Shown: piece after piece, positions 8,120 through 60,720 of the stretch
Position numbering within the stretch: the first letter of the stretch is position 1
Layout: the number at the start of each line of letters is the position of its first letter
DNA from: an uncultured Planctomycetia bacterium
GTDB lineage: Bacteria > Omnitrophota > Gorgyraeia > 2-02-FULL-51-18
Direction: 5' to 3'
Assembly (NCBI GenBank): GCA_964373505.1
Contig: CAYJVC010000003.1
Coordinates: 11,336 to 75,335, forward strand
Length of the DNA: 64,000 nt
Program-made: the position numbers and the translations under genes
The notes under the pieces: model-generated
Told to the model about the DNA's origin: nothing
Database searches by the model: none
The model's input: only the letters and a program-made list of their open reading frames with translations

Positions 8120-8964
8120 ACCCTACGATCTATTTCGAACTCACTAAACCGCGCTTGGTGTTGATGGCGCTTTTAGTGTGCGTTTCTTCATTCACCATGG
8201 CTTCCGAAGGCCGGTTCGACTGGGGGTTGCTGTTTCACACACTGGTCGGCTCCGCGCTCGTCGGGGGAGGGGCCAACAGCCTCAATCAGTTCGCGGAAAG
8301 AGAACTCGACGCCAAAATGACCCGAACCCAGCGTCGGCCTATTCCCAGCGGGCGGCTCGTCGGAAAAAATGCGCTTGTTTTCGGCTTTTTCTTGTCGCCC
8401 CTCGGTGTTTGTTATCTATTTTTCTTCGTCAACCCGCTCACCTCGTTCGTGGGTTTCTTGATCCTCGTGACTTACGTGCTCATGTATACGCCGCTTAAGC
8501 GGAGAACCCCCTTCAGCGCGTTTGTGGGAGCCATTCCCGGGGCCTTGCCCGTACTATTGGGCTGGACGGCCGCCAACCCTTCTCTGGGCAAAGAGGCCTT
8601 GATCTTGTTTTCCATCCTGTTCGCGTGGCAAATCCCTCATTTTTTGGCGATCGCGTGGCTCTACAGGGAGGACTATCTGAAAGGGGGCTTTAAGATGTTC
8701 GCGGCCAATGACCCCGACGGCAGGATCACCGGATGGCAAATTGTCGCGGCGAGCCTCATTTTGTTCGGGCTCAGCCTCGCCCCGAGCTTTTGGGGCATTA
8801 CGGGATTGACCTATCTTTTTATGGCAATCTTTATTGGGGTGAACCTCTGCGGTTTTGCCATTTATCTGGCCGCGCACCGCCTTTCCCATGCCAAACAGTT
8901 CGTAGTCGCATCCATCCTTTATCTTTTTGCGCTCAATGTCTCCATGGTGGTGGACAAAGCATGA
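8116..8964 (+). CDS. ctaB: Protoheme IX farnesyltransferase (heme O synthase, UbiA family)
   Basis: The N-terminus MNPTIYFELTKPRLVLMALL, the UbiA prenyltransferase helices and a 4-nt ATGA overlap with ctaA. Confidence 0.9.
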   Translation: MNPTIYFELTKPRLVLMALLVCVSSFTMASEGRFDWGLLFHTLVGSALVGGGANSLNQFAERELDAKMTRTQRRPIPSGRLVGKNALVFGFFLSPLGVCYLFFFVNPLTSFVGFLILVTYVLMYTPLKRRTPFSAFVGAIPGALPVLLGWTAANPSLGKEALILFSILFAWQIPHFLAIAWLYREDYLKGGFKMFAANDPDGRITGWQIVAASLILFGLSLAPSFWGITGLTYLFMAIFIGVNLCGFAIYLAAHRLSHAKQFVVASILYLFALNVSMVVDKA

Positions 8965-9035
8965 CCCCATCCCCTGATTTGTCCGCCGGAGGCGGACCGA
9001 TTGCACAGCAATCGAAGAAATTAGGGGATGGGGTG
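8962..9035 (+). repeat. Family-1 intercistronic palindromic element E7 (TGACCCCATCCCCTGATTT ... AAATTAGGGGATGGGGTG)
   Basis: The left arm begins with the ctaB stop codon TGA at 8962. The right arm ends with an in-frame GTG at 9033. An internal hairpin GTCCGCCGGAGGCGGAC is present. Confidence 0.6.
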
Positions 9036-9629
9036 GGCGCTAAACAGGAAAAAGGCTTAACGGCGGTGCTCTGGTGGCTGGGTTGGATCCTTTTGACCAT
9101 CCTCTCATTCTTTGCATCCTGCTACTTTTGGACCCTATTTATCGCCAAAAATGTGGGCGGCATGGACAAACCCGGTGTGCCCATTTTGTGGGTTACGGCG
9201 GTCTTTGGAAGCTGGATGGTGCTTCTGGTGCCTCTTATCATTCTCATGTACAGCAAAGTGGATAAGGCTTATGAAGACGCGAGGATCGCGCGCGAAACCG
9301 GAGCGCTCGATAAAGCTAAAACGGCCTTTCGGGTGAGAAGCGTGCTCATTGAGGTTGAAAAAAGGATGCTGGACAAGACGCTCTCCCGAAAACTCAAGAC
9401 ATTTCCCGAAACCTTAAAAAGGGCCCATCTTGTCACCGCGGTCTTGAATGATGGAAGAAAGATCGAAAATGTCTTTGTCGTAAACCGCCGGGAAGTGCTC
9501 GGAGTCTACGATAAAGACGCGCTGGATTTTGAGATAAAGGATATCGCGGACTTAAGCCCCACGGACCTTGACCGTTTGCCCGACTTTAGATCCGAAAAAT
9601 GGCTCAGGCTCGACGGGGTGGGAGCTTAG
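9033..9629 (+). CDS. Small membrane protein (two transmembrane helices plus a soluble C-terminal domain), hypothetical
   Basis: Two hydrophobic helices (LTAVLWWLGWILLTILSFF, VTAVFGSWMVLLVPLIILM). The start is ambiguous between the ATG at 8961, which overlaps the ctaB stop as ATGA, and the GTG at 9033 predicted by the family-1 pattern. Confidence 0.5.
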   Translation: MGAKQEKGLTAVLWWLGWILLTILSFFASCYFWTLFIAKNVGGMDKPGVPILWVTAVFGSWMVLLVPLIILMYSKVDKAYEDARIARETGALDKAKTAFRVRSVLIEVEKRMLDKTLSRKLKTFPETLKRAHLVTAVLNDGRKIENVFVVNRREVLGVYDKDALDFEIKDIADLSPTDLDRLPDFRSEKWLRLDGVGA

Positions 9630-9633
9630 TGAA

Positions 9634-9996
9634 ATGAACACGTCAGCGGAGCAGGCGGCGAATAAAGCCGCGCAGATCATGGCGGAGCGGGACCAGAAAC
9701 CTCCGCGTAAAAAAACTCCTCCCAAGCTCGCCGTCATTGAACAAAGCGGCTGCACCGGATGCGAAGCCTGTATCGTCTTTTGCCCCGTGGACTGTATTGA
9801 GATCGTGCCGGGAATAAATTTTCATCCGCAAGTACAGCAGGTCGTGGAAGTGGACCTTGCGCGGTGCATCGGCTGCGCGCTTTGCGCGAAAAACTGCCCC
9901 TGGGACACGATCGAGATGCTGCCCACCGAGCAGGCGCTTAAAGAGGCTCCTTCCTACACGCTCAAAAGCGTCTGCGGTCAGGGGACAGCAACCTAG
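9634..9996 (+). CDS. 2x[4Fe-4S] ferredoxin
   Basis: Two CxxCxxCxxxCP clusters (CTGCEACIVFCP and CIGCALCAKNCP). GGTGGGAG ribosome-binding site before the ATG at 9634. Confidence 0.8.
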   Translation: MNTSAEQAANKAAQIMAERDQKPPRKKTPPKLAVIEQSGCTGCEACIVFCPVDCIEIVPGINFHPQVQQVVEVDLARCIGCALCAKNCPWDTIEMLPTEQALKEAPSYTLKSVCGQGTAT

Positions 9997-10934
9997 GCGC
10001 CGAGGCGCTTTTCTATGAAGTCGGCGACTTTTGCTTCCGTCCGTGTTTTGTTGAGAAAATTGAGTTCCGGAATACCTGCGGGGCTCGTCACATTCACTTC
10101 GGTAAGATAGTCCCCGATCACGTCGATCCCCGTAAAATAAAGGCCGTGCTTCAATAAAAGCGGCGCTAGGTCATGCACGAGCTTCTTGTCGTGCACCGTC
10201 AAGGCGGCTTTGTGCATTGTCCCGCCGGTGGAGAGGTTGGCCCTGAAATCATGGCGCGGCGGTCGGCGCAAAAAAGCGCCGAGCGGCTCGCCATTCAATA
10301 GGACGATCCTCTTATCTCCGTACTTGTCCGCCGAAATAAATCGCTGGATCATCACTTTTTCATACCCCGCATGAGTGGCCGTATTAAGAAGGGAGGCCAG
10401 GTTCCGGTCGCCGCGGGCCGTGGTAAAAATTCCTTTGCCCCCTTTTTCATTCAAAGGCTTTACGACCACTTCAAACCGGGCCGCATCAACAAACGCCCTT
10501 GCGCGCAAAGGACTCTCGGTCACGAGAGTCTCCGGAGCATATTTTTTAAACCTTAAACTGAAAAGCTTCTCATTGGAAATGGCGATCCCTGAAGGGTCAT
10601 TTAGCACAAAAACCTTGTTATTAATGCTCTCCAAAAGCTGCAACGCATAGAGATAAGCGTTGTCAAACGGCGGTTCCTTGCGGATAAAAATGCAGTCCAA
10701 GCCCGCCAGATCCGACGGTTTCTTTGAAAGAGGGGAGGGGATGAAGCCCTTCCGAAGGCTTAGCCGTGCCGGGCGTGTGTAGGCCTTGGGCGAGCCCTCC
10801 AACCATAGAAGATCCTCGCTCTCAAAATAAGACACCTCATGCCCCCGCCTTTGAAGCTCACGCATGATCCAGAAGGAGGAATCCTCATTGGCCTTCACGT
10901 TCTGGGTCGGGTAAAGCAAAAAAGAGATTCTCAT
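9993..10934 (-). CDS. gshB: Glutathione synthetase (ATP-grasp, GshB-type)
   Basis: Matches the prokaryotic GshB/RimK ATP-grasp fold (GEPLGAFLRRP...NLSTGGT). Start taken at MRISFLL. Confidence 0.75.
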   Translation of the reverse strand: MRISFLLYPTQNVKANEDSSFWIMRELQRRGHEVSYFESEDLLWLEGSPKAYTRPARLSLRKGFIPSPLSKKPSDLAGLDCIFIRKEPPFDNAYLYALQLLESINNKVFVLNDPSGIAISNEKLFSLRFKKYAPETLVTESPLRARAFVDAARFEVVVKPLNEKGGKGIFTTARGDRNLASLLNTATHAGYEKVMIQRFISADKYGDKRIVLLNGEPLGAFLRRPPRHDFRANLSTGGTMHKAALTVHDKKLVHDLAPLLLKHGLYFTGIDVIGDYLTEVNVTSPAGIPELNFLNKTRTEAKVADFIEKRLGA

Positions 10935-10972
10935 GTCAGGGTTTTTATTATAGCATAGACAAGGAGGCAAGA

Positions 10973-12328
10973 ATGAGCCTGCAAACCACCGACATTCAAC
11001 TGACTATTGACGACCTCGAGCGCACTTTCACGGCGGGTTTTAAAAAACCGCGCGATTTCCAGGTCGGCGTCGAATGGGAAAAGATCGCTGTCTACAAGGA
11101 TTCCGGTAAAGCCATAAGCTACTCGGGCGCACGGGGTGTGACCGCAATTTTTAAAGCGCTTATCGGCCAATTCGGCTGGGAGCCGGTCACTTCCGATCAA
11201 AACATCATCGCGCTTAAAAAACAAAATTCCTCGATCACGCTGGAACCCGGCGGGCAGATCGAGCTGAGCGGCCAAAAAGCATTCTCGCTTGACGACAATG
11301 CGCTTGAGCTCTACGCGCACCTTGAGGAATTGAAGAAGGTTTCGGACCCATTGGGCATCGCCTGGCTTGGGCTGGGCGTCCAACCCATGAGCCGGCTCGA
11401 CGAGATCGAATGGGTGCCGAAGAAGCGCTACGACATCATGCGCGAGGCGCTCAAATATAACGGAGAGCTCACTTACCGCATGATGAAACAAACCGCGTCG
11501 ATCCAAGTTTCGCTCGACACTGCGGACGAAAAAGACGCCATCCAGAAATTGCGCCTGGGCCTGGCGCTTTCACCCGTGCTCACAGGAATTTTTGCGAACT
11601 CCCCGGTGCTGGAGGGCAATGTAAGCCCGTTTTTATCCGCACGCGCGCACATCTGGTCCCACACCGCCCCCGAGCGGACCGGCATTCTCGCGAAGATCTT
11701 CGACTCGGATTTTACGCTGAAAGATTATGTGGATCATGCGCTCGAGGTGCCGCTTCTTTTCATCGTGCGAGGTGAACAATGGATCCCCGGCGACGGTATT
11801 TCCTTCGGCACCTTTTTAAAGAAAGGCCACTATGCGCATACCGCGACCCTCGAGGATTGGAACTTGCACCTGACCACTCTATTCACGGAGGCAAGGCTTA
11901 AGCACTACGTGGAGATAAGAAGCGCCGACTGCCAGAACAAGGAGCTGGGCCTTTCGATCCCGGCGTTCCTGAAGGGGATTTTTTACAGTAAGCGTTCGAT
12001 GAATAAGGTCTGGGAAAAACTCGCACCCTACTCCATCAAAGAGCGGCTGGCGCTGGCCGTCCAAGCGTCAAAAAAAGGCCTGGAGACGTCCTTCGGGAAT
12101 CAAAAATTAGCAGACTTGGCGTGGGAATTCTTGGCGCTGGCCGAAGAAGGGCTAAAAGAGCTTTCACTTCAAAATCCGGCGTTGAGCAACGACTCCCAGT
12201 ACCTGGCGCCGCTTAAAAACCTGCTCCGCGGGAGCCTGACACCCGCCGAGATCCTGCTCCGTTGTTTTCGAAGCGCCTCGTCCCGACAGGAAAAGGTGGA
12301 AAAGATCCTCCGCTGTGCGGCTATCTGA
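10973..12328 (+). CDS. gshA: Glutamate--cysteine ligase (plant/cyanobacterial-type GCS2 family)
   Basis: Transcribed divergently from gshB. Length and motifs (EPGGQIELSG, HYVEIRSAD) fit GCS family 2. Confidence 0.65.
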   Translation: MSLQTTDIQLTIDDLERTFTAGFKKPRDFQVGVEWEKIAVYKDSGKAISYSGARGVTAIFKALIGQFGWEPVTSDQNIIALKKQNSSITLEPGGQIELSGQKAFSLDDNALELYAHLEELKKVSDPLGIAWLGLGVQPMSRLDEIEWVPKKRYDIMREALKYNGELTYRMMKQTASIQVSLDTADEKDAIQKLRLGLALSPVLTGIFANSPVLEGNVSPFLSARAHIWSHTAPERTGILAKIFDSDFTLKDYVDHALEVPLLFIVRGEQWIPGDGISFGTFLKKGHYAHTATLEDWNLHLTTLFTEARLKHYVEIRSADCQNKELGLSIPAFLKGIFYSKRSMNKVWEKLAPYSIKERLALAVQASKKGLETSFGNQKLADLAWEFLALAEEGLKELSLQNPALSNDSQYLAPLKNLLRGSLTPAEILLRCFRSASSRQEKVEKILRCAAI

Positions 12329-12331
12329 GCA

Positions 12332-13105
12332 CTAACTCCTTAACTTATAACCGCTCCTGAAGAGTTTTTCGACGGCAATGAAGAGCCCGACGGCCAGCGT
12401 CCCGGCCAGGCCCATGCTGAAAGCCACGTTCACATCCGAGATGCCCAACATCCCGTAGCGCAGGCCGTTCACAAGGTAGAAAATAGGGTTCAGCTTCGTG
12501 AAAGCCTGAAGAGGCGCCGGCACCATCTCGAGGCTGTGGAACACGCCGCCGAAGTAAATAAGCGGGGTGAGCACGAAAGTGCCCCAGAGGGACAGCTTTT
12601 CAAAGCCTTCGGCCCACAACCCCGCCATAAGCCCAAGGCATGAAAATATGACCGTCACCACCACGAAAAAGTAGATCACGATCCAGACGTTAAAGAATAC
12701 GAACCGCGTAAAAATAAGCGACACGAGGTAAACGCCGGAAGCGGCCAAAATTCCCCTCGAGACGCCGCCGACCAGGAGCCCCAACACCATTTCGAAATAG
12801 GAGAGCGGCGACAACAGCACTTCCTGAATGTGGTTGTGCCAGCGAGAGATGAAGAGGGAAGAGGAGGTATTTGTGTAGGAGCCTTCGATGAGGTGCATCA
12901 TCACAAGCCCCGGCACCATAAAGGAAATGTAGTTGACGCCGGCTACCGCGAGGTTCATATTGCGTCCTATCGAAAATCCGAACACAAAAATAAAAAGCGC
13001 CGAAGAAATGAGCGGCGGCACGATCGTCTGGGTGAACACGACGAAAAACCTCAACACTTCTCTTTTCACGAGCGTCCGAAAACCCACCGGATTGCTAAAC
13101 AACAT
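12332..13105 (-). CDS. ABC-2 type transporter permease
   Basis: Six hydrophobic helices. Translationally coupled to the upstream ATPase gene. Confidence 0.75.
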   Translation of the reverse strand: MLFSNPVGFRTLVKREVLRFFVVFTQTIVPPLISSALFIFVFGFSIGRNMNLAVAGVNYISFMVPGLVMMHLIEGSYTNTSSSLFISRWHNHIQEVLLSPLSYFEMVLGLLVGGVSRGILAASGVYLVSLIFTRFVFFNVWIVIYFFVVVTVIFSCLGLMAGLWAEGFEKLSLWGTFVLTPLIYFGGVFHSLEMVPAPLQAFTKLNPIFYLVNGLRYGMLGISDVNVAFSMGLAGTLAVGLFIAVEKLFRSGYKLRS

Positions 13106-13880
13106 CTCCGGCCTCCCGTTCCACTTCCTCCGTGAGCTGTAAAAACATCGTCTCGAGGCTTTGGTTCTGCGTCAGGGATTTCTTGTCGCCGTCATGGACA
13201 ATGCGGCCTTTGTGGATGATGATCACGTTCTTCGCGAGCCGCTCGGCTTCTTCCATGTAATGCGTGGTCAAAAAAATAGTTTTGCCGTTCTTATTGATCT
13301 CCTCGAGATACTGCCAAATATGGTGTTTAAGTTCCAGGTCGGCGCCGGCCGTCGGTTCGTCCAAAATAAGTATTTTTGGGTCATGGATGAGCGCCCGGCA
13401 GATCAGGAGCCGCCGTTTCATGCCGCCGGAGAGTTTCCGAAAATCCATGTCCTTTTTTTCGAATAACCGAAACCGCTCGAGAAGCGCGCGCGAACGTTTG
13501 ACAGCCTCGATCTCCGGGATCCCAAAATATCCCGCCTGATAAACGAGCACCTGCTCAAGGGTCAAAAAGGGGTCAAAATTGAACTCCTGGGGACAGAGTC
13601 CGATCAAAGGCCGTGTGCTTCGGTAATCGCGAACAACGTCGTTCCCAAACACACGCACGGAACCCTGTTGGAAATTGCAAAGACCGGTGATCGAATGAAT
13701 TGTCGTCGTCTTGCCGGCGCCGTTCGGTCCCAAGAACGCCACAAAGTCCCCGGGCTCCACTTGGAAGCTGATCCCGTCGACCGCCTTAAAATCGCGGTAG
13801 TACTTCACAAGACCCTGGATCTGGATAGCGGCTTCCGGCATAGAGCCTTTTATCATAAACAAAGAAAGCTTAACCGTCAA
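13095..13880 (-). CDS. ABC transporter ATP-binding protein
   Basis: Walker A GPNGAGKTT, signature LSGGMKRRL and Walker B ILILDEP. The true start may be an internal Met (MPEAAIQ). Confidence 0.85.
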   Translation of the reverse strand: MTVKLSLFMIKGSMPEAAIQIQGLVKYYRDFKAVDGISFQVEPGDFVAFLGPNGAGKTTTIHSITGLCNFQQGSVRVFGNDVVRDYRSTRPLIGLCPQEFNFDPFLTLEQVLVYQAGYFGIPEIEAVKRSRALLERFRLFEKKDMDFRKLSGGMKRRLLICRALIHDPKILILDEPTAGADLELKHHIWQYLEEINKNGKTIFLTTHYMEEAERLAKNVIIIHKGRIVHDGDKKSLTQNQSLETMFLQLTEEVEREAGDVV

Positions 13881-21823: not shown

Positions 21824-22383
21824 GAGGGCTTTTTGATAAGTTCCATGAATTCCATGCGCGTGGCGCGGTCCGTCCGGAACACCCCCAGCATCGTGCTCGT
21901 CACGCACACCGAACTTTGTTTTTCAACCCCCCGCATCGCCATGCAAAGATGCAGCGCCTCGATGATCACGGCTACGCCGAGCGGCTCGAGCGCGTCCTTC
22001 AGGCAATTGGCGATCTGGCTTGTGAGACGTTCCTGCACTTGGAGGCGCCGCGCGAACATATTCACGATCCGGGGAATTTTACTCAAACCCACGATCTTCC
22101 CGCTTGGGATATAGGCCACATGGCACTTCCCGTAAAATGGCAGGAGATGGTGTTCACAGAGGCTAAAAAGGTCTATGTCCCTCACCACCACCATCTCATC
22201 GTACTCTTCGTTAAAGACGGCCTTATTCAACACGTCCTTAGGGCTGAGTTTGTAGCCGCTGGTTAGGAATTGGTACGAGGCCTCGACACGCTTCGGGGTT
22301 TTTATAAGGCCCTGGCGTTTCGGATCTTCCCCCAGGAGAATGAGAAGACGGCGCGTCAATGCGCTGATTTCGGCCTTTTTCAC
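21820..22383 (-). CDS. folE: GTP cyclohydrolase I
   Basis: CEHHLLPF...GKCHVAYIP motif. GTG start at 22383, preceded by the family-1 arm. Confidence 0.9.
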
Positions 22384-22486
22384 CCCACCACCTCCTTCCG
22401 AGATAGCTTAAAGGCTGTCTCGATGCGTAAATTTTCTTTAATTTGCGCATCGCACAACAAAGTTGTAGAAGGAGGTGGTGGGGTCA
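22380..22486 (-). repeat. Family-1 intercistronic palindromic element E1 (variant arms TCACCCCACCACCTCCTT / AAGGAGGTGGTGGGGTCA)
   Basis: 17-18 bp perfect inverted arms. The left arm ends at the folE GTG start codon. Includes an internal AAATTTTCTTTAATTT module. Confidence 0.65.
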
Positions 22487-22517
22487 TAGTGGGGAGATTA
22501 TACGATAACGCGGGAGC

Positions 22518-24430: not shown

Positions 24431-25604
24431 GGGCTTGGGAATATTGTTTGGCCTTCTTGACGGCCGTTTCGGCGGCTTCCTGGATCGTCGCACAAGACAG
24501 GATAGGTAAGCCGGAGTCTTTCAGAAGCCTCCTCCCCTCTTCGACCTGCGTGCCTTCCAGGCGGACCACGAGCGGCACCTGGGATCGAACCTCCTTCGAG
24601 GCCTCGATCACGCCCTGAGCGATCACATCGCACCTCATAATACCGCCGAAAATGTTCACCAGGATAGCCTGCACGCGTTTATCTTCCAGAATGATCTTAA
24701 AACCTTCCCTCACCTGATCGGCCGTGGCGCCCCCTCCGACGTCTAAAAAATTGGCGGGTTCCCCGCCGGCCAACTTGATCGTGTCCATCGTCGCCATCGC
24801 AAGCCCCGCGCCGTTCACGAGACAGCCGACGTCACCGCTCATTGAAATATAGCTTAAACCGAACCCTTTGGCCTTCCTTTCGCGCTCGTCTTCCTCATCG
24901 GGGTCCTTCAAGGCCTGGTTCTCGGGGTGCCGGAACAACGCATTGTCATCAAACACCATTTTGGCGTCCAGCGCCATCACCCGGCCGCCTTCCACCAGCG
25001 CCAGTGGGTTGATCTCACAGGTCGAAGCGTCCTTTTCTACAAAAAGCCTCGCCAGCTTCTCGGCGATAGCTGCAATTTGTTCGGGGGTCGCCCGATCGGA
25101 ATAGATCGGTTTTATCAAGGAAATGATCTGCGCGGCCGTGGGAAGCGACTCGGGTGAAAAGTGCATTCGGTGGATCGCCGAAGGGTTCTTCGCAGCCACC
25201 TCCTCGATCTCGACGCCGCCCTCTTTTGAGAACAGGATCACGGGCTTATTTTTTGTGCGGTCCACCACAAGGCCCAAATAATATTCCTCACGGATGGGTT
25301 TGTCTTCGGTGATCAGAACGGATTTAACGGTCTTCGCCTCGCCGCCCGACTGGGGGGTGGAAAAAGGCTTGCACAGGAATTTTTCGGCGAACGCCACGGC
25401 CTCGGCGGCCGTCCGAACTTTTTGAACGCCGCCCGCTTTCCCGCGGCCTCCCATCAACACCTGAACCTTCGTGATGCAAGAGGGGCCGGCGTAACGGCCA
25501 AAGGCGGCTTGGATATCCTTGGAATTAAAGACAGCTTCACCTCGGGGGATGGGGATGCCGTAACTTTCCAGAAGGTTTCTGGCCTGATATTCGTGGAGTT
25601 TCAC
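24414..25604 (-). CDS. sucC: Succinyl-CoA synthetase beta subunit
   Basis: ATP-grasp domain with N-terminus [15 protein letters not shown] start at 25604 inside the family-1 arm. Confidence 0.9.
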
Positions 25605-25719
25605 CCCATCCCCTGTTTCTTTGTTTTAAGAACAAACAAATTCGCCTCCGGCGTATTTGAACGCCGCTTTTCGTAGTTTTTTTGCCGCCACAGCGGCGTT
25701 GAAACAGGGGATGGGGTCA
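25601..25719 (-). repeat. Family-1 intercistronic palindromic element E2 (TCACCCCATCCCCTGTTTC ... GAAACAGGGGATGGGGTCA)
   Basis: The right arm ends with TCA, which is the mdh TGA stop codon (25717-25719). The left arm ends at the sucC GTG start (25602-25604). Internal hairpins GGCGTATTTGAACGCC and GCCGCCACAGCGGCG. Confidence 0.65.
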
Positions 25720-26664
25720 TAATAGCCCGAGCCGCGTAAGCTCACCGACGCCCTGCTTGACTTTGCGAGCCGAAAGCTCCAAAGCCTTTTTTTCTTCGGC
25801 CGTCATTTCGATCGTCACTACTTTCTCTACGCCGTTTTTGCCCAGTTCAACCGGAACTCCGAAGTACATGTCCTTCAAGCCGTATTCACCGTTTAAATAA
25901 GCGCATACGGGCAGCACCTTTTTTTCATTCTTTAGTATCGCCTTGACCATCTCGGCAATGGAGCTGGCCGGTGCATAGAACGCACTCCCCGTTTTTAAGA
26001 GTGCCACGATCTCGGCTCCGCCGTCGCGGGTCCTCTGCTCGATCCGGGCCAGTTCTTCGGGTGGAATGAGCTCCTCCACGGGCTTATTCTTGACAGCCGA
26101 ATGGCTGGATAGCGGCACCATCAGATCTCCGTGCCCGCCCAAAACGACCGCAACCACATCACGCGGCAAAACCTCTAACCGCTCCGCGATGAAGGCGCGC
26201 ATGCGCGCGGTATCCAATACGCCCGCCATCCCGAAAACCCTCTGCGACGGAAAAGCCGCCGTTTTAAACGCCAAATAAGTCATGACGTCCAAAGGGTTCG
26301 TCACGATCATGATCTTGGAATCGGGCGCGTATTGCTTGACGTTCGCGCATACCTCCTTCACGATCTTCGCATTGAGCGCCAGGAGGTCCTCGCGCGTCAT
26401 GCCGGGTTTGCGCGGCAGCCCCGCCGTCACCACCACGAGTTCGGCGCCCGCAATATCCTTGTAGTCGTTGGTCCCGACGATCCGCTTGTCATGCCCCTCG
26501 ATCGGCGCCGACTCCATGAGATCCAGCGCCTTGCCCTGCGGCAGGCCCTGAACAATGTCGAACAATACGACGTCCGAGAGGCCTTTCTCCAAGATCCGCT
26601 GGGCCGCAGTGGCCCCCACTTGTCCCGCGCCGATCACGGCCACGAACGGTTTTCGGATCTTCAT
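25717..26664 (-). CDS. mdh: Malate dehydrogenase (LDH-like family)
   Basis: AVIGAGQVGAT Rossmann motif and MTRDDL-like catalytic loop (GMTREDL). Confidence 0.9.
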   Translation of the reverse strand: MKIRKPFVAVIGAGQVGATAAQRILEKGLSDVVLFDIVQGLPQGKALDLMESAPIEGHDKRIVGTNDYKDIAGAELVVVTAGLPRKPGMTREDLLALNAKIVKEVCANVKQYAPDSKIMIVTNPLDVMTYLAFKTAAFPSQRVFGMAGVLDTARMRAFIAERLEVLPRDVVAVVLGGHGDLMVPLSSHSAVKNKPVEELIPPEELARIEQRTRDGGAEIVALLKTGSAFYAPASSIAEMVKAILKNEKKVLPVCAYLNGEYGLKDMYFGVPVELGKNGVEKVVTIEMTAEEKKALELSARKVKQGVGELTRLGLL

Positions 26665-43196: not shown

Positions 43197-44309
43197 TCAG
43201 CCTCTCCGGTTCATAACGCAATTTGAAATGACGGGCAACGGCACGTTTTTTACGACCGTGGTTTTCCCCAGAGAAACCGGCAACACGAATCGGTTCGAGC
43301 CCAGTTCGCTTTTTTTGTCATAGCCCATCGCTTTTAAAACGGCCTCGGCAGAAAGCGCGTGATAAAAAAGAGGCAGGCCGAATTTGATCAGCACTCCTTC
43401 AATCCTTCCGGGAAGCGCCGGATCTCTTAAGGTTCCCAAGGCCTTGGCCAAGTCACAGGCGATCAGCATCCCGATGCTCACCGCTTCTCCATGCGTGTAA
43501 CGGCCCGAATAACCCGAAGCTCCCTCGATTGCGTGACCGGCCGTATGGCCAAAATTCAGCATGACGCGGATATCCTTTTTATCCTGCTCGTCCTGCGCCA
43601 CGAGTCTGGCTTTTATTTTCACACAGCGCTGTATTACTTTTTCGAGGCGCCGGTTTTTTTTTCGAACGCCGTCCATCCCCTCTTTTTCCAAGATGGAAAA
43701 AAGTCGCCCGTCCCGGATCACCGCGTATTTGATCACCTCCGCAAACCCGTCGCTCCAATGCCTGTCCGGCAGTGTGTCGAGCACCGCCGTGTCGGATATC
43801 ACGAGTTGCGGTTGATAGATGGCGCCTAAAAGATTCTTGCCTTCGGGGAGATCGATCGCCGACTTGCCCCCGATCGCCGAGTCGACCTGGGCCGTCAACG
43901 TTGTCGGGATCTGGATATAGGGAATACCCCTTCGGTAAACCGCGGCGGTAAATCCGGCCAGGTCCCCTACGACCCCCCCGCCGAGCGCGATCAGAAAAAC
44001 GGATTTGCCTCTGCCGTCCGTAGACGCCACGGCTTTGATCAGCTTAGAAAAAACAGCTTGTGACTTAGCGGCTTCCGAACTTTTGGAGCGGGGCGGCATG
44101 AAAAATACCGGGTCAACCCCTTCGCGAAGCAGCGAATTTACAAGGGGATCCCCGTACAGATCCACGATCGGCTTCTGTGAAACGATAATGGCGTTTCGGT
44201 GCAGAATGCGCTTATTTTTTAAAATCCGTCCCGTTTCCGAGAGGATCCCCCTCCCGATCAGCACCGGGTAGGATCTCTCTTTAAGGCCGACGCGGACGGA
44301 AAGCATCAC
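43197..44309 (-). CDS. aroB: 3-dehydroquinate synthase
   Basis: GGGVVGDLAGF, DTLPDRH and HTAGHAIE motifs. Start set at the GTG/ATG (44309/44306) inside the family-1 arm. The ORF-track Met at 44327 has no ribosome-binding site. Confidence 0.85.
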   Translation of the reverse strand: MMLSVRVGLKERSYPVLIGRGILSETGRILKNKRILHRNAIIVSQKPIVDLYGDPLVNSLLREGVDPVFFMPPRSKSSEAAKSQAVFSKLIKAVASTDGRGKSVFLIALGGGVVGDLAGFTAAVYRRGIPYIQIPTTLTAQVDSAIGGKSAIDLPEGKNLLGAIYQPQLVISDTAVLDTLPDRHWSDGFAEVIKYAVIRDGRLFSILEKEGMDGVRKKNRRLEKVIQRCVKIKARLVAQDEQDKKDIRVMLNFGHTAGHAIEGASGYSGRYTHGEAVSIGMLIACDLAKALGTLRDPALPGRIEGVLIKFGLPLFYHALSAEAVLKAMGYDKKSELGSNRFVLPVSLGKTTVVKNVPLPVISNCVMNRRG

Positions 44310-44424
44310 CCCACCTCCTTTTTCCACGCCGCAAACACAGTAAAAAATACTGCAGAGGCGGCGTTCCTATTCGCCGACGGCGAATAGATTTGTTTTTTGA
44401 ACGAAGAAAAAGGGGGTGGGGTCA
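44306..44424 (-). repeat. Family-1 intercistronic palindromic element E6 (TCACCCCACCTCCTTTTT ... AAAAAGGGGGTGGGGTCA)
   Basis: The right arm ends with TCA, the TGA stop of the CsaA-like gene (44422-44424). The left arm carries the aroB GTG. Internal hairpin TTCGCCGACGGCGAA. Confidence 0.65.
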
Positions 44425-44748
44425 ACTCACGATACTTCCAGGAGGGAGTTCTTTGTCAAGCGCCAGGAGCGTGAGTTCCGGGCCGTTTTTGGCCGCCAGG
44501 ATCATGCCGCGGGATTCAACGCCGCGGATCGTTGCGGGCGCGAGGTTATTCACGACGATCACGGACTTGCCGAGGAGGGACTCTCGGGGGTACATCGCCT
44601 TCACTCCAGCCACCACCTCTTTTTTTTCGGAGCCGACGTCGATCACGAGCCGCCAGATCCTGTCCGCACCCGGCACTTCCTGGACGTCGAGGATCTTGGC
44701 CACCTTCAGCTCAAGCCGCCTAAAATCCTCCAGAGAGATTTCCGTCAT
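44422..44748 (-). CDS. tRNA-binding protein (CsaA / Trbp111 / EMAP-like OB fold)
   Basis: LKVAKILDVQEVPGADRIW...VVNNL...GVESRGMIL, typical of the MetRS C-terminal-like tRNA-binding domain. Confidence 0.7.
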   Translation of the reverse strand: MTEISLEDFRRLELKVAKILDVQEVPGADRIWRLVIDVGSEKKEVVAGVKAMYPRESLLGKSVIVVNNLAPATIRGVESRGMILAAKNGPELTLLALDKELPPGSIVS

Positions 44749-53030: not shown

Positions 53031-53409
53031 AAACATGAAATCTTGCCTTCTTAAACCTATCGGAGAGGGTCGGGTCGACCAGCTTGGAAACTTCCTCAAG
53101 CACCCTCAGGGATTCCTTCACGCGCTCACTGTTGGCCGAGAAAATATCAAGCGCATCCTTGCGCGGCTTCTCGAGCGTGGAAGGCCCTCTTCCGACGTCC
53201 GCCCTCACATTCCGCGCGGACATAAGCCGCGCGATCGGCACCGGCGCATTTTGAACGCACCGGCTGATGGCGTGCCGGACCTTTTTCAGATCGCTCGTGA
53301 GCGAAGCATCCCCGAGCACAAAACGCGTGATCTCTTCGCAGACCCGCAAACCCTCGCGCGAGCGGTTAAAATTCGCATCCAAGATCCTTAAGATCTGCCT
53401 TGGGGTCAC
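52924..53409 (-). CDS. Hypothetical protein (ILDANFNRSREGLRV motif), encoded upstream of and overlapping thiE
   Basis: GTG start at 53409 within the family-1 arm. Its 3' end overlaps thiE by at least 106 nt, so a frameshift or fusion is possible. Confidence 0.45.
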   Translation of the reverse strand: MTPRQILRILDANFNRSREGLRVCEEITRFVLGDASLTSDLKKVRHAISRCVQNAPVPIARLMSARNVRADVGRGPSTLEKPRKDALDIFSANSERVKESLRVLEEVSKLVDPTLSDRFKKARFHVYAIEKRTLPKLEALRDHGSFGGRKKSSAGARQRSR

Positions 53410-53491
53410 CCCACCCCCTCTTATTGAGGCGACGTTGTCGCCTCGGCACTTCGCGTCAAAATTAAAAATTTAAAAAGAGGGGATGGGGTCA
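53406..53491 (-). repeat. Family-1 intercistronic palindromic element E3 (TCACCCCACCCCCTCTT ... AAGAGGGGATGGGGTCA)
   Basis: The right-arm TCA is the rfaE2 TGA stop (53489-53491). The left arm carries the GTG start of the downstream gene (53407-53409). Internal hairpin GAGGCGACGTTGTCGCCTC plus an AAAATTAAAAATTT module shared with E4. Confidence 0.65.
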
Positions 53492-54001
53492 CAAACTGCG
53501 CTTGATCTTCCCGATAAGTCCCGTTGTGGAAAAGCCTTTCACGGTCGGCAGCGACGAAACCTTGCCGCCGTAAGACTCCACAAACCCGCTGCCGACGATG
53601 TCTTTTTTCTTCCAGTCGCCGCCCTTCACGAGAAAATCGGGTCGGACCGCCTGAATGAGCTTGAGCGGAGTCGGCTCCGAAAAAAGCACCAGGCAATCGA
53701 CGGCCGAAAGGGCACCCAGGATCTCCGCCCTCTGCGCCTCGGGTGTCACGGGCCTTTCAGGGCCTTTCAAGCGCCTGACCGACGCGTCGCTATTCAAGCC
53801 GACCACCAGCACGTCTCCTAATGAACGGGCCCTTTGCAGAGTGCGCACGTGGCCCAAATGGAGGATGTCGAAGCAACCGTTGGTAAATACAATGCGCTTT
53901 TTTTTCTTTTTTAATTGCTTAACGCGGGAGATGAGATCTTTCAGCGAGAGAACCTTCGACCTTCGACCTTCAACCTTCGACCTTTTTTTAGAGGAGCTCA
54001 T
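53489..54001 (-). CDS. D-glycero-beta-D-manno-heptose-1-phosphate adenylyltransferase (RfaE domain II / cytidylyltransferase-like)
   Basis: [14 protein letters not shown] nucleotidyltransferase motif. Confidence 0.8.
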
Positions 54002-54554: not shown

Positions 54555-54559
54555 GTCCT

Positions 54560-55582: not shown

Positions 55583-55591
55583 CGGATGCTC

Positions 55592-56992
55592 CTATTTTTT
55601 CTGAACGGCCTCTTCAAGCTTACCCCCCTCTGAATCCTTGTCGCCCCATTCGCCCAACACGCGCTGGATAAAATCCGTGTACATCTGGCCGCGGCGGAAA
55701 ACAGGGTTCTTCAGTATTTCCTTATGAAGAGGGATCGTCGTTTTAATGGGTTCGATGATAAATTCATCGAGCGCGCGCTGCATCATGCTGATCGCCTCGC
55801 CGCGGTTCCGGCCGTGAGACATGAGTTTCCCGATCATCGAATCGTAATGCGGTAACACCGTGTAACCGGCGTACACATGGCTGTCGAGCCGGATCCCGGG
55901 ACCGCCCGGCGCGTTGTAGCGCTCTATTTTCCCCGGCGACGGGATAAATTGATTGGAGGGATCTTCCGCGTTGATGCGGCATTCGATCGCGTGTCCTTTG
56001 AGCGGGATCTTATCCTGCCGGGTGATCGTGAGCTTCTCGCCGGAGGCGATACGGATCTGCTCTTTCACGATATCGATCCCGGTCACCAGTTCGCTGATCC
56101 CGTGCTCAACCTGTATACGCGTGTTCATCTCCAGAAAATAAAACTTGCCGTCCGTGTCAAGCAAGAATTCCACGGTGCCCGCGTTCACGTAATTCACCGA
56201 GCGTGCCACCTTCACGGCCACGTCACCCATCTTCTTTCGGAGCTTCCAATCCACCGACGGCGAAGGCGCCTCTTCCAGAAGTTTTTGGTGGCGTCTTTGG
56301 ATCGTGCATTCCCTTTCATAAAGGTGAAGGATGTGCCCATAGGAGTCCGCAAGGATTTGGATCTCGATGTGCTTTGGTTTTTCGATATATTTTTCGATAT
56401 AAACGGAAGAATTGCCGAACGCGGCCTCCGCCTCATGCTGCGCGGTCATGATGGAGCTGACAAGGCGTACTTCATTGTGACAGACACGCATGCCGCGCCC
56501 GCCGCCGCCGGCGGCCGCCTTGATGATCACGGGGTATTTAATGCGTTTGGCGACTTTCAGCGCCGCCTCTTTGTCCTTGATGGGTTCCTGAGCGCCGGGG
56601 ACGATCGGCACGCCGACTTTCCGGACCGTCTCGCGAGCCGCCATCTTGTCGCCCATCGAGCGGATGGCCTGCGGACCGGGGCCGATGAACTTGATCTGAC
56701 AGGACTCGCAGATCTCGGCAAAATGAGCGTTTTCGGACAGAAAACCGTAACCCGGATGGATGGCATCTACATCGGTGATCTCGGCCGCACTTATGATCGC
56801 GGGAATATTGAGGTAGCTTTGGGACACCACGGCGCCGCCGATGCACACGGCCTCATCGGCCAGGTGCACGTGGGGCGAGTTCGCGTCCGGTTCTGAGTAA
56901 ACCGCGACGGTCCGCACCCCCATCTCTTTGCAGGCGCGGATCACTCTTAAAGCGATTTCGCCGCGGTTGGCGACCAGGATCTTTGAAAACAT
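55592..56992 (-). CDS. accC: Acetyl-CoA carboxylase biotin carboxylase subunit
   Basis: [18 protein letters not shown]-terminus, ATP-grasp domain and biotin carboxylase C-terminal domain. Confidence 0.9.
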
Positions 56993-57010
56993 CAGGGAAC
57001 CCTTGCGGAA

Positions 57011-57469
57011 CTACTCAAGAGAGAATAGAGGTTGGCCGAATTCCACCGGGTCGCCGTTATTGACGAGCACTTCCACGACCTTGCCTTTGATCTCCGATTT
57101 TATTTCATTCATGAGCTTCATGGCCTCGATGACGCAAACCACTTGCCCGGTCTCCACCGCTGACCCGACCTGCACGAACACAGGCGCATCGGGAGCAGGC
57201 GCCGCGTAAAAAGTGCCGACCATCGGGGACTTGATGAGGTTTCGCGCGGGCGGGGTCGGGGACTTAGCGGCTTCTTGAGCCTGGGCCTTGTCCCGCGCGG
57301 AGGGTTCAAGCGCTTTGGGCGGACGATCCTCCGACAGGATGGATTGTTCGATAAAACCCGCCTGGTTTTTTTTGAGACGGATCTTGACGCCGTCCTCTTC
57401 GAGGTCCAACTCCGTGAGATTATTCTCGTTCATGAGCTGGATCATTTCCTTGATCTCTTTTAAATTCAC
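57011..57469 (-). CDS. accB: Biotin carboxyl carrier protein
   Basis: Biotinyl domain EAMKLMNEI (AMKM). GTG start at 57469 within the family-1 arm. Confidence 0.85.
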   Translation of the reverse strand: MNLKEIKEMIQLMNENNLTELDLEEDGVKIRLKKNQAGFIEQSILSEDRPPKALEPSARDKAQAQEAAKSPTPPARNLIKSPMVGTFYAAPAPDAPVFVQVGSAVETGQVVCVIEAMKLMNEIKSEIKGKVVEVLVNNGDPVEFGQPLFSLE

Positions 57470-57551
57470 CCCATCCCCTCCTTTTGAGATGGCGGAGCCA
57501 TCTCAGCGCTAAGCGCTAAAATTAAAAATTTCAAAGGAGGGGATGGGGTCA
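57466..57551 (-). repeat. Family-1 intercistronic palindromic element E4 (TCACCCCATCCCCTCCTT ... AAGGAGGGGATGGGGTCA)
   Basis: Perfect 18-bp arms. Internal hairpins GAGATGGCGGAGCCATCTC and AGCGCTAAGCGCT, plus an AAAATTAAAAATTT module. Sits between the efp stop and the accB GTG start. Confidence 0.65.
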
Positions 57552-57559
57552 TGGAATGT

Positions 57560-58117
57560 TCAGGCCCTTTCCAGGTACTGGCCGGTGCGTGTGTCTACGC
57601 GGATCTTGTCGCCCGTGCCTACGAACAGAGGCACTTTGACCGTGGCGCCGGTTTCAACTTTCGCGGGCTTAGTGCCGCTTTTGGCCGTGTCCCCCCGGAC
57701 TCCCGGTTCGGTTTCCTTGACTTCCAGGACCACCGAGGAGGGCAGTTCGACCAATAAAAGCGCTTCGCCGTTGAAACGGCCGACAGCCTCTGAATCGTCC
57801 TTTAAGAAAGCGACACTTTCTCCCAGAAGCGAGGCGTCGACGACGATCTCATGATAACTCTCGTTGTCCATGAAGTGGTAATGCTTGCCTTCACGGTACA
57901 AGTATTGGATCGGGCGGTTCTCAAGGTAGATCTCTTCAAACTTGTCGCCGGACCGAAACGCCTGCTCCAATACGTTGCCGGTCTTGATATTGCGCAGCTT
58001 GGTGCGCACAATGGGCTGGCGCTGCTGCATCTTGACAAGCTGAAAATCCAAGATTTCGCAGAGCGCGTTGTCAAACTTGATCACGACTCCGGACCTGAAT
58101 TCACTTGTCGAGATCAC
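57560..58117 (-). CDS. efp: Elongation factor P
   Basis: N-terminus [28 protein letters not shown] with the KPGKG-like loop region. Confidence 0.9.
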   Translation of the reverse strand: MISTSEFRSGVVIKFDNALCEILDFQLVKMQQRQPIVRTKLRNIKTGNVLEQAFRSGDKFEEIYLENRPIQYLYREGKHYHFMDNESYHEIVVDASLLGESVAFLKDDSEAVGRFNGEALLLVELPSSVVLEVKETEPGVRGDTAKSGTKPAKVETGATVKVPLFVGTGDKIRVDTRTGQYLERA

Positions 58118-59159
58118 GTGTCAACACCTCATGCCCGTTCTTAGTGATAAGCACCATGTCCTCTATCCGCACTCCGAATTTGCCCGGCAGATAAATACCG
58201 GGCTCCACCGTGATCACCATTCCGGGCTCCAGAATGGTTTCGCTCCTTGAAGACACCGTGGGAGCCTCGTGGACCTCAAGTCCCACCCCGTGCCCCGTGC
58301 CATGGCCGAAATAGCGCCCGTAACCGCTCTTTTCGATGGCCTTCCGGCAGGCGGCATCCACTTCCTTGGCCGACACGCCCGGGCCCGCTTTTTGAATGCC
58401 CAGGCGCTGGGCATTCCAGACGATCCTATATATTTTTCGCAATAAACTGTTCATTTTACCTAAAAAAATAGGGCGGGTCAAATCCGAATAATAACCTTCA
58501 TACACCACACCCATGTCGACCAGCAAAATGCCATTGTCCTTGATCGGGGTCTGGTTTGTCTGGCAGTGCGGCATGGAGGATCGGGCGCCTGCGGCAATAA
58601 TAATGTCAAATGCCGGTTTTTCGGACCCCAAGGATTTGGTATAAAATTCGAGCCTCCCCTGCACTTCGCGCTCTGTCATTCCCGCTCGCGCTATGGTTTT
58701 CACGTAATGGAACCCCTTCACGGCTATCTCAACTGATTTACGGATCTGGTGGATCTCAAAGGCGTCTTTTTTCTCTCTTAATTTCTCAACGATCCCCTGT
58801 GTAGGCTTAAGCCTGTCGCGGCCTACCTTGCGACTAAGCAGCTCATAAAAACTATGGCTCACGATCGCAGACTCAAAACCCACAGCGTCCAGCCGGTGTT
58901 TCCTCGAAAGCTCAGCCACCATTTCGGAAACACCCCGCTTGTCTCTCAAAAGCACTTTGAAACCCTTGGTCTCCTCTTTAGCCTGTTCGGCATAGCGCGA
59001 ATCGGTAATAAAATAGAGCCCCTTGGGCGAAACAAAAAGCCAGGACTCGGTGCCCTTGAAACCGCTCAAGTAAGTCACGTTCGGCCAGGAGCTCACGAGA
59101 AGCGAATCCAGTGAATGCTTCCTCAGGCGCTTGAAAAGATCGCGGATCCTCGAGTTCAC
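58101..59159 (-). CDS. Xaa-Pro aminopeptidase (M24 family)
   Basis: M24 metal ligands (D, D, H, E, E) in a pita-bread fold ([13 protein letters not shown]). Confidence 0.8.
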
Positions 59160-59620
59160 CCCGCCCTCCGCTTCCCGGTCTTTCGGCCTTCGACGATCCC
59201 AAGCGCAGCCATGAGCCCGAGCTCGTAGCTTTTCTGGCCGAATCCCGAGATCTGGCCCACTGCCACCGGCGCCACCAGCGACTCGTGCCTGAAGGCCTCA
59301 CGGCTGTATATATTGGAAAGGTGCACTTCTACCGTCGGTACTTCCACGGCCGAGATCGCGTCCCGTATCGCGACCGAAGTGTGTGTATAGGCGGCCGGGT
59401 TTATCACGATCGCATCGAACACGCCTTTCGCATCGCCTATTTTGGATACAATTTCGCCTTCGTGGTTGGATTGAAAGAACTCTACCTTCGCGCCGCGCGC
59501 CGCCGCGAGCTTCGTCAAAGACTCATTGATCTTTTTTATCGTGACACTTCCGTAAACTTCGGGTTCCCGCTTACCCAAGAGATTTAGGTTAGGCCCGTGA
59601 ATGACAAGTATTTTTTTCAT
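59156..59620 (-). CDS. aroQ: 3-dehydroquinate dehydratase, type II
   Basis: N-terminus [24 protein letters not shown] and HLSNI motif. Confidence 0.9.
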
Positions 59621-59639
59621 GCAGACTCCCTTGAAATGA

Positions 59640-60608
59640 TCACAACACCACTTGACCCGGTTTGCGCCTAAAACTCACGTGGTACTTGCGGCCCAACGCG
59701 TACACGACGCCGCCGATAATGCTCATCAAAAATAAGACCGCAAGCCACAGGACACCCAGCGCCGCTGCGTTGTGCGCGCCTATATGGGGCGCCAGGAAAT
59801 ACACGTACGCGCCTTCGCGTATCCCCAAGCCGTTGAGCGACGGCAGCATGCTGATGAGATGCACGACGGGCACCAAAAGATAAAAATAAATGACCGAGCT
59901 CTTGGCGCCGAGCGCGACCGCCATGAGATACAGCGCCCAAATACTCACGGCCTGACCGATGAGCGACAAAAGAATTGCCTGAGCCACGACCGCCTTGTGA
60001 TTTTTAAAATTGTGAAGCCCATTATAAATTTTCCTGAGCTTTTCCCCCCAATGAAAACGGTTCAAGACTCGCTCAATAAACCCGAAGCGGCGGGCGACGC
60101 TCCGGTTAAAGATGAGAAAAAAACTGAACAGCGCCATGCCCAGAAATGAGTAGATCACGACCGGGACGGCCGGGTTCTCAATGTTCTTCAGAAAGAAAAT
60201 AAAAGTCACGCTCGGGATGGCGATGAATGTAAAAAGGCCGAATAGTCTGTCCATCAGCACGGAAGTCACGGACTTCATGGGGTGACTGGTGATGCGGGCC
60301 GCGCACATGGCTTTCACAATGTCCCCTCCCACCGATGTCGGCAAAAAATTATTAAAGAAGTAGCCTATGAACGTAAGGTTCAGCGACTCCCTAAGGCGCA
60401 TGGGAATATCTTCCGCGATGAAAATAAGTTGAAGGCGTCGGGCCAAAATGACGATCGTGGCCAAGAACACGGCAACGGACAACCCCAGGAGATTCCGGTC
60501 AACCCCTTTAAGCGCCGCGAGTATCTGAGGCAGGCTGCCGCGCATCAGATAGAACAGGAGAAAAAGAAAACCGATACTGACCCCGGTTCTCAGCAGAAAA
60601 CTTTTCAC
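59640..60608 (-). CDS. UPF0104 / MprF-flippase-domain-like integral membrane protein
   Basis: Eight hydrophobic helices. GTG start at 60608 within the family-1 arm. Confidence 0.6.
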
Positions 60609-60720
60609 CCCATCCCCTCCTTCCGCGCCGTTTCGGCACCCATCATCCGGGAAACGGCGCTTGGATCCGCCAAAGGCGGATCCATTGATTCTTCGAACAA
60701 ATAAGGAGGGGATGGGGTCA
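60605..60720 (-). repeat. Family-1 intercistronic palindromic element E5 (TCACCCCATCCCCTCCTT ... AAGGAGGGGATGGGGTCA)
   Basis: Perfect 18-bp arms. Internal hairpins CCGTTTC...GAAACGG and GGATCCGCCAAAGGCGGATCC. Confidence 0.65.

Follow-up and report, generated by a model that had tools for sequence, protein, structure and literature searches.

A probable MITE-like palindromic repeat family with start-codon residence in Omnitrophota-type bacteria

Seven palindromes of similar sequence lie at the starts of genes in a 64,000-nucleotide stretch of contig CAYJVC010000003.1 (positions 11,336 to 75,335; hereafter the window), each with a GTG start codon built into one of two arms that are predicted to pair. 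This arrangement raises the question of what these elements are, and of how a gene can be translated when its start lies in a long stem. We conclude that they are probably copies of a non-autonomous family, in Omnitrophota-type bacteria, that resembles MITEs (miniature inverted-repeat transposable elements) and combines insertion at start codons with a translational relay. Unusual for a family of this type, and well supported, is its residence at start codons together with self-repair of the translation start.

Repeat family and its insertion sites

A sequence-only reading of the window had described seven intercistronic palindromes with inverted arms of 17–19 bp, an AAGGAGG motif and an in-frame GTG start in the right arm and, in four cases, the upstream stop codon in the left one. 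All seven were present where, and on the strands on which, it had placed them, and the two-arm pattern TGACCCCAYCMCC..GGDGRTGGGGTG matched exactly these seven, against none in 100 shuffles (a single-arm search gave 15 matches against 0.03 expected). On recount the arms were complementary over 15–19 bp, the left TGA was indeed the stop codon of the upstream gene in four copies (8962, 25719, 44424 and 53491), and the downstream open reading frame (ORF) was in frame with the right GTG in 7/7, this codon coinciding with the canonical N-terminus of SucC (MKLHEYQA) and of AccB (MNLKEIKE). AAGGAGG, however, was found in only four of the seven right arms, the remaining three reading AAACAGG, TAAGAGG and AATTAGG. 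The intercistronic placement stood in part: it failed for the copy at 22486, where a terminator and a promoter-like site upstream place the element in a very short 5′ leader and not within an operon, and the copy at 60720 follows a TATAAT box. Arm–arm duplexes were predicted at −29.5 to −39.5 kcal/mol and whole elements at −42.7 to −71.5 kcal/mol (z = −6.4 to −9.3), folding into an outer stem with two or three inner hairpins, which agrees, as a prediction, with the proposal that the Shine-Dalgarno (SD) sequence and start codon are sequestered. Near-matches at 10727, 51004 and 51771 were rejected as family members because the partner arm is absent.

A scan of species-representative genomes, with a pattern that required a left TGA and a right TG and made no demand on the base after GTG, matched at least 98 loci, of which about 84 belong to the family. 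Fourteen matches were left out as unrelated GC-rich palindromes or chance, 87 copies were kept, and the family statistics given below were computed on 94 copies. Among the matches listed, family members occur in at least 39 metagenome-assembled genomes (MAGs), which bear the labels Candidatus Omnitrophota, Elusimicrobia or 'uncultured Planctomycetia', the last being syntenic with MAGs of Omnitrophota; one MAG alone holds at least 14 loci, and the window seven copies in 64 kb. Since the closest named relatives of the window AccC are exclusively Candidatus Omnitrophica/Omnitrophota, the window itself is Omnitrophota-like.

The elements are 67–125 nt long and end in a terminal inverted repeat (TIR) with an 11–12-bp core, CCCCA(C/T)C(A/C)CCT, and a terminal stem of 17 bp. 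Stem positions 0–11 are near-invariant, positions 12–16 (five pairs) vary yet stay complementary (for example, CG 40 / GC 40), and position 17 is random. The usual arm outside the window reads CCCCACCACCT and that in the window mostly CCCCATCCCCT, and arm variants look homogenised per genome (ATCCCC in the window vs ACCACC elsewhere); the arms of copy 2 are of the CCACCACC variant common in other genomes. The interiors, with one to three GC hairpins, are highly variable and define same-interior subfamilies, which recur several times in one genome and also, across genomes, at positions that are not orthologous. L030, for instance, has the interior of window copy 3 though it lacks sucC, and the interior of copy 4 is a flipped relative of that of copy 3. 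Orthology was considered for the shared interiors of window copy 3, L030, L033 and L069 and rejected, the flanks being unrelated by tblastn; these copies are thus paralogous.

Direct evidence for insertion came from junctions that are filled in one genome and empty in another. At a dnaG-like start, filled L066 reads cttATGA[CCCC...GGGG]TGAtcccc and empty L056 reads tttATGAtccca; filled L069 likewise faces empty L052 (GTGAtctc) at a ruvA-like start, and filled L006 faces empty L048 (ccgGTGAaatcc). For the window copies the comparison set comprised five syntenic relatives (L179–L183; 83–90% AccC identity), in whose syntenic region no elements were found, so that the presence/absence differences at orthologous junctions anticipated for a mobile cassette do occur. 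Empty sites corresponded to copies 5, 6 and 7: the rfaE/ThiD2 junction of copy 5 is a 4-nt overlap in all five relatives (GTGA, GTGA, TTGA, ATGA and GTGA), the accB start at copy 6 is GTGA or ATGA in four, and at copy 7 L182 reads aacttATGAaaaaa behind the same −10 box, as compared with aacttATGA[element]TGAaaagt in the window. Between filled and empty junctions exactly one TGA (3 bp) is duplicated, empty sites holding a single TGA; the left border keeps the old start codon, and the new GTG consists of the element's last G followed by the duplicated TG. As SucC genes usually begin with ATGA (30/32), the sucC junction offered a suitable site from the outset.

Among related copies with identical TGA flanks, 38 pairs shared their orientation and 13 were flipped, which indicates that the TGA belongs to the target and that insertion is orientation-free. 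A classical TIR transposon fits such behavior better than a single-strand mechanism of the HUH type. One copy (L054:3572-3716, − strand sense) lies just before an rpsC-like gene (MGQKVHP...), where stop and start overlap as TAATG, and has a TAA/TAA duplication, defining the target as TNA. Together, TIRs, a target-site duplication checked against empty sites, small size, the lack of a transposase ORF and many dispersed copies are the features of a MITE, and of the roles that the sequence-only reading had floated, it is the MITE-like cassette supplying a ribosome-binding site (RBS) and start that the filled and empty sites with TGA duplication, the many copies and genomes and the two orientations bear out.

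The rfaE/ThiD2 junction filled in the window (53406-53491) is also filled in L096 (3646-3731), a distant Omnitrophota MAG with 64% AccC identity, by an element of the other frame class whose interior is unrelated to that of copy 5, while closer relatives are empty. Such a pattern implies either that elements inserted independently at a single hot spot or that one element took the place of another. At L036:47-130 an element of ~46 nt is followed at once by a second right arm (TGACCCC...GGGGTGACCCC...GGGGTG), a composite or nested arrangement suggesting that one copy inserted beside or into another.

The 14 excluded matches had CCCCTCCCC..GGGGAGGGG cores or were chance matches, in Hymenobacter, Fibrella, Sulfuritalea, Bordetella, actinomycetes and others. 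Loci L029, L039, L055, L078, L008, L076, L079 and L083 carry a different long GC-rich palindrome with 38–41-bp arms (CCCCTCCCC...GGGGAGGGG), hosted by Hymenobacter, Fibrella, Sulfuritalea, Desulfuromonadaceae and Betaproteobacteria. A scan of viral contigs gave no matches and hence no sign of a phage vector. In Rfam 15 the sole match at the gathering score was a tRNA and no element family, and a search of three copies at E<1 returned a single chance match to a miRNA-precursor hairpin. Searching the literature by sequence or topic, we found no description of the element family. Exact-protein look-ups of the window SucC and AccC returned no record, and a SucC-based metagenome scan yielded homologues of only ~50% identity, of use solely for establishing the usual ATGA start of sucC; three arm-like matches among them were dismissed as coincidences in coding sequence.

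Start-codon residence and reading frame

The copies are confined in position. In 81/94 of them the right GTG is the start of an ORF of at least 60 codons, as compared with 1 and 19 for the other two frames, and A follows the GTG in 92/94; the left TGA closes an ORF of at least 60 codons in 46/94. By position, 42 copies join a start and a stop, 39 have a start only, 5 a stop only and 8 neither. The base before the TGA is A in 59, G in 24, T in 8 and C in 3, and no flank motif beyond DTGA was found around the copies. All seven window copies are at gene starts, vs 132 non-coding TGAs and 29 TGA stops that were available there. In each of them the base preceding the left TGA is A, G or T (ATGA in five, GTGA in one, TTGA in one), so that a start codon overlaps the left TGA. 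The rarity of rule-breaking copies points to selection, possibly together with target preference, as the force that confines the family to start codons.

The left-border start codon, a rule on element length and an open frame between the borders were not part of the sequence-only reading. Measured from TGA to GTG, length is 1 mod 3 in 53 copies (class 1), 2 mod 3 in 36 (class 2) and 0 mod 3 in the remaining 5; a count by cluster of interiors gives 47/33/5. In class 1 the frame from the left start is open to the right TGA in 50/53 copies, compared to 16/53 for a control frame, and yields a mini-ORF for peptides such as MTPPP...KEVVG*. In class 2 it is open and continuous with the gene in 31/36 (MTPPP...GGGV-protein). 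Overall, the frame is open in 74/78 gene-start copies vs 7/11 elsewhere (p = 0.007), and a GGAG/GAGG core is present in the right arm of 41/53 class-1 but 3/36 class-2 copies (p = 5e-11). In 6/7 window copies, the left start codon shares its frame with the TGA that overlaps the right GTG; that of the 8962 copy, which ends in GTGG instead of GTGA, is in frame with the right GTG and the downstream gene. Without read-through by ribosomes that begin at the old start codon, these frame and SD statistics would be difficult to account for, and, taken at the level of sequence, the left start codon, the mod-3 rule and the open frame indicate translation through the stem.

In the mechanism that we propose, the element inserts at a TNA target, here TGA, and duplicates it, with copies surviving almost solely where the TGA consists of the final TG of a start codon and a following A (DTGA), often in an ATGA or GTGA stop–start overlap. 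A new GTG thereby forms at the exact old N-terminus, the left border retaining the old start codon; the right arm of one class also adds an SD sequence 7 nt upstream of the new start. Up to this point, insertion with TGA duplication, the rebuilt start and the frame rules are shown by the comparisons above. On the mRNA the 17-bp arm stem (~−30 to −40 kcal/mol) would bury the new SD and GUG, and ribosomes that initiate at the old start codon, or that re-initiate on it after finishing the upstream gene where the site had been an ATGA overlap, would translate through the stem and melt it. In class 1 they would stop on the duplicated UGA that overlaps the GUG and hand over to the downstream gene, a natural equivalent of a 'bicistronic design' (BCD) relay; in class 2 translation would continue in frame and give a short N-terminal extension. 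The element thus is apparently kept harmless by ribosomal read-through.

Several points weigh against this account. We infer the translation of the mini-ORFs solely from frame statistics, and the coupling and the moving enzyme are likewise deduced. In the fetched loci we saw neither an autonomous copy nor a transposase whose ends match, and arm pairs spaced 200–4000 nt apart were absent. The by-catch copies include, besides the one TAA/TAA duplication, several without any TNA, and as the retrieval pattern admitted only matches with a left TGA and a right TG, the range of duplications seen is biased. The copies are phylogenetically non-independent, and individual window copies depart from the rules: copy 5 has been retained despite a premature in-frame stop, and copy 3 despite having no SD core. 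The restriction to start codons could stem from target choice or from purging of, or selection against, other insertions. Finally, a simple cut-and-paste model does not account for the complementary variation of positions 12–16 and of the inner hairpins, which calls for selection on structure or for some mechanism that restores palindromes. G·U and A·C mismatches in the outer stem are symmetric (27 vs 24), while sense RNA is slightly more stable than antisense (55 vs 37 copies, p = 0.013), a weak bias that hints at some RNA-level constraint.

Alternative explanations and known repeat systems

One alternative is that the palindromes mainly serve as sites for RNase III, or another nuclease, that segment polycistronic mRNA, with the insertion history secondary. 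Their long, near-perfect, GC-rich 17-bp stems do resemble substrates of double-strand RNases, and many copies lie between co-directional genes, 42/94 at stop/start overlaps. RNase III processing has been shown for the Correia elements of Neisseria. Even so, we consider this main role unlikely, given that it accounts neither for the start codon at the left border and the open frame that follows nor for the mod-3 rule and the correlation of SD with frame class, that 39/94 copies have no preceding gene ending on TGA, and that at least one window copy directly follows a promoter. RNase III processing as a side effect of the element is possible.

A hairpin-rich architecture could also identify repeats of the REP/REPIN type or derivatives of IS200/IS605 (PATE), moved as single-stranded hairpins by a HUH Y1 transposase (RAYT/TnpA). 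Such enzymes insert 3′ of a fixed tetranucleotide and make no true duplication. Complementary stem variation is typical of elements that act as folded single strands, and the flanking TGAs could in principle represent a left cleavage-site motif and an element-internal right motif. Against this stand the two orientations between identical TGA flanks, which a strand- and orientation-specific HUH mechanism does not predict, and the exactly one TGA of the empty sites; moreover, the ends are long TIRs and not subterminal hairpins, and no conserved GTAG-type REP head was seen. We therefore regard this mode of movement as very unlikely.

The regulatory hypothesis would make the palindromes not mobile DNA but dedicated cis-regulatory RNAs (a translational gate, a thermometer or a protein-binding operator) that hide the SD and start of a regulon, a gate of this kind having been among the roles first suggested for the window copies. 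It draws on the burial of SD and GUG at −30 to −40 kcal/mol, the covariation of stem positions 12–16 and inner hairpins, the slightly better folding of the sense strand and the apparent homogenisation of arms within a genome. It is contradicted by the hosts, which are unrelated housekeeping genes, by the emptiness of the same junctions in relatives with 83–90% AccC identity, by interiors that are unrelated between copies and found in both orientations, and by the unrelated elements at one junction in the window and L096. The 3-bp duplication marks insertion, the outer-stem mismatches are symmetric, and no Rfam family was matched, leaving a regulon-wide gate highly improbable. That the palindromes are ordinary conserved RBSs with GTG starts, the upstream arm being fortuitous, accords with the SD-like sequence and start codon of the right arm but is practically untenable, being refuted by the shuffle test (7 matches observed vs 0 expected by chance), by the presence and complementarity of both arms in every copy, and by empty orthologous sites, the starts in relatives being without the sequence.

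The probable MITE-like nature of the family can be set against described systems. Bacterial MITEs, such as the Neisseria Correia elements and the cyanobacterial Nezha, were defined by Delihas (2011; PMC3184786), and like them the family is <200 bp long, encodes no transposase and has TIRs, a target-site duplication, a stable predicted hairpin, dispersed copies and filled and empty sites; it meets this structural definition save for a known parent insertion sequence (IS). It departs from MITEs in that the interior is not conserved, only ~12 bp per end plus a complementary variable extension being held in common, and in that copies are almost exclusively on start codons, with the start rebuilt and length and frame obeying translation rules.

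In behavior the family is closest to MIRU (Supply et al. 1997, summarised in PMC3184786), which occupy intergenic regions of operons, within polycistronic mRNA and oriented with the genes, contain small ORFs overlapping the flanking stop and start, and show short direct repeats and empty sites that suggest transposition. The small ORF of the family similarly overlaps the flanking stop and start and is oriented with transcription (50/53 class-1 copies open), and its left NTGA and right GTGA borders fit a MIRU-like overlap. MIRU, however, are mycobacterial tandem direct repeats (variable-number tandem repeat loci) of 46–101 bp with only imperfect inverted repeats, whereas the family consists of single palindromes in Omnitrophota-type MAGs, with a strong 17-bp stem, TGA duplication and no sequence similarity. 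The Neisseria REP2 repeats, which carry an RBS, a start codon and their own promoter and are without TIRs, and the Borrelia IR-A repeats offer a further likeness (PMC3184786), the family resembling REP2 in supplying an RBS and start codon; REP2 is not known to rebuild a start via target duplication or to carry a relay ORF. Class-2 copies, finally, recall the Rickettsia palindromic elements (RPE), BOX, RUP and BRE, palindromes tolerated in coding sequence with the frame kept (PMC3184786), which insert internally or C-terminally in proteins and neither at a start codon nor with a stop/start-overlap relay. Tandem structure, absent TIRs or host range exclude membership in MIRU, REP2 or RPE.

The synthetic BCD has a short leader cistron that holds the downstream SD and whose stop overlaps the downstream start, structure at the start site being unfolded by the ribosome that translates the leader (PMC5995908, PMC6302717), and translational coupling has been modelled by RNA unfolding and re-initiation (reviewed in PMC12548453). 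The mechanism proposed here agrees with both of these accepted models. Class-1 copies have exactly the BCD layout; BCDs are engineered and not mobile, and the corresponding function of the family is a proposed one. Regarding the mobilizing enzyme, the IS1031 subgroup of IS5 is reported to make exclusively 3-bp TNA duplications, TGA included (PMC12016507), comparable to the TGA and, once, TAA duplicated here, whereas the sole published inverted repeat available (ISLrh, GAACCTGTCTAGTATCT) is dissimilar to CCCCACCACCT; an IS5/IS1031-type transposase is accordingly a lead and not a finding. With target duplication, both orientations and no GTAG-type head, the family does not fit REP/REPIN. Integron attC sites have R''/L''-L'/R' core sites (RYYYAAC/GTTRRRY) that bound promoterless cassettes next to intI. 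The present arms, by contrast, read CCCCACCACCT, and the flanking genes are syntenic housekeeping genes.

Individual window copies and wider implications

Coordinates and borders of the window copies are collected in Table 1. By Pfam, the flanking genes are UbiA/ctaB, folE, mdh, sucC, a tRNA_bind csaA-like gene and aroB, together with an rfaE-like cytidylyltransferase, ThiD2, efp, accB, a galT-like gene and LPG_synthase_TM.

Table 1. Positions, strands and borders of the seven window copies and of the signals upstream of copy 2.
Feature	Position	Strand	Class and frame	Left border	Right border
Copy 1	8961..9036	+	In-frame class; element itself 8962-9035	ATG 8961-8963, overlaps ctaB/UbiA stop TGA 8962-8964	GTG 9033-9035, in frame with ATG and 198-aa downstream ORF; right duplication decayed to TGG
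Terminator-like hairpin, then promoter-like site, just upstream of copy 2	22578-22531 (intrinsic-terminator-like hairpin); 22524-22497 (TTTAAA-16-TATAAT)	-			
Copy 2	22380..22487	-	Mini-ORF class; 35 codons (MTPPPPST...KEVVG*)	ATG 22487-22485, opens ORF	ORF end TGA 22382-22380, overlaps folE start GTG 22383-22381
Copy 3	25601..25720	-	Mini-ORF class; 39 codons; right arm without GGAG/GAGG core (AAACAGG)	ATG 25720-25718, overlaps mdh stop TGA 25719-25717	ORF end TGA 25603-25601, overlaps sucC start GTG 25604-25602
Copy 4	44306..44425	-	Mini-ORF class	TTG 44425-44423, overlaps csaA-like stop TGA 44424-44422	aroB start GTG 44309-44307; ATG next in frame
Copy 5	53406..53492	-	Mini-ORF length class; in-frame TAA five codons before end	GTG 53492-53490, overlaps rfaE-like stop TGA 53491-53489	ThiD2 start GTG 53409-53407
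Copy 6	57466..57552	-	Mini-ORF class; 28 codons	ATG 57552-57550, 8 nt past efp stop	Terminal TGA overlaps accB start GTG 57469-57467
Copy 7	60605..60721	-	Mini-ORF class; 38 codons	ATG 60721-60719, 9 nt past TATAAT box	Terminal TGA overlaps LPG_synthase_TM start GTG 60608-60606

Upstream of LPG_synthase_TM, a −10-like box (TATAAT / TACAAT) is placed 9 nt before the ATG both in the window (60719-60740) and in the empty site of L182 (2400-2440), and in the folE copy a TATAAT lies 9 nt ahead of the left ATG in the same way. The folE and LPG_synthase_TM mRNAs may thus be leaderless or near-leaderless, in which case the element would convert them to SD-led starts.

The window also contains an unrelated 83-nt palindrome at 2465-2566 (+), with arms (2467-2505 / 2511-2549) that are 82% complementary; it spans the gap between two co-directional genes and has no second copy in the window or the loci. 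There, a frame of 33 codons begins at an ATG that overlaps the upstream TAA (TAATG) and closes on a TGA that itself overlaps the downstream ATG (ATGA). The relay mini-ORF geometry is common to this palindrome and the element family, whose sequences differ.

In the frame fixed by insertion the common arm reads Met-Thr-Pro-Pro-Pro, placing polyproline exactly on the left arm; the main arm variant of the window (ATCCCC) is read as Thr-Pro-Ser-Pro, and one window copy is directly downstream of efp. Polyproline runs of this kind need EF-P. In most genomes a ribosome would then pause on polyproline just while covering the left arm, which would tie the opening of the downstream start site, and the expression of all host genes, to EF-P activity or proline supply.

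A further set of apparent copies was seen in a 3′-truncated bacterial RNase P RNA at L056:5395-5932 (+) (RF00010, 84 bits, E 7e-26). Its P3 helix (5413-5476) reads CCCCACCACUUGUUUU[two hairpins]AAAACAAGUGGUGGGG, with the arm and architecture of the family and without TNA duplication, a further copy is nested at the P12 position (5699-5780), and a third pair, CCCCACCA..UGGUGGG, with a 51-nt insert, lies near model positions 290–300. Peripheral helices of a structured RNA gene thus seem to house members of the family, and the presence of related copies in P3 and P12 suggests that, as a general strategy, the family may settle only where a hairpin does no harm.

By extension, the family may be more than a tolerated parasite, namely a transposon lineage with the start codon as its genomic niche, and could act as a built-in BCD that standardises how translation starts at perhaps one gene in ten in some genomes of Omnitrophota. 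Taken together, a lineage specialised for start codons, a built-in BCD, EF-P/proline coupling and a harmless-hairpin strategy make up a doubtful, if conceivable, proposition.

The probable insertion of a MITE-like family at start codons would, if true, provide a clear example of a transposable element with the copies that survive placed on start codons, and its self-repair, in which the start is regenerated, an SD supplied and the frame obeyed, would show how selfish DNA persists in very compact genomes. The class-1 copies would be a natural counterpart of the engineered BCD cassette, with dozens of variants for testing coupling models based on unfolding and re-initiation. For the annotation of Omnitrophota and related MAGs, the elements would mean miscalled starts, spurious 25–40-aa MTPPP ORFs and false N-terminal extensions, and insertion polymorphism between close relatives offers a potential strain marker for these uncultivated lineages.

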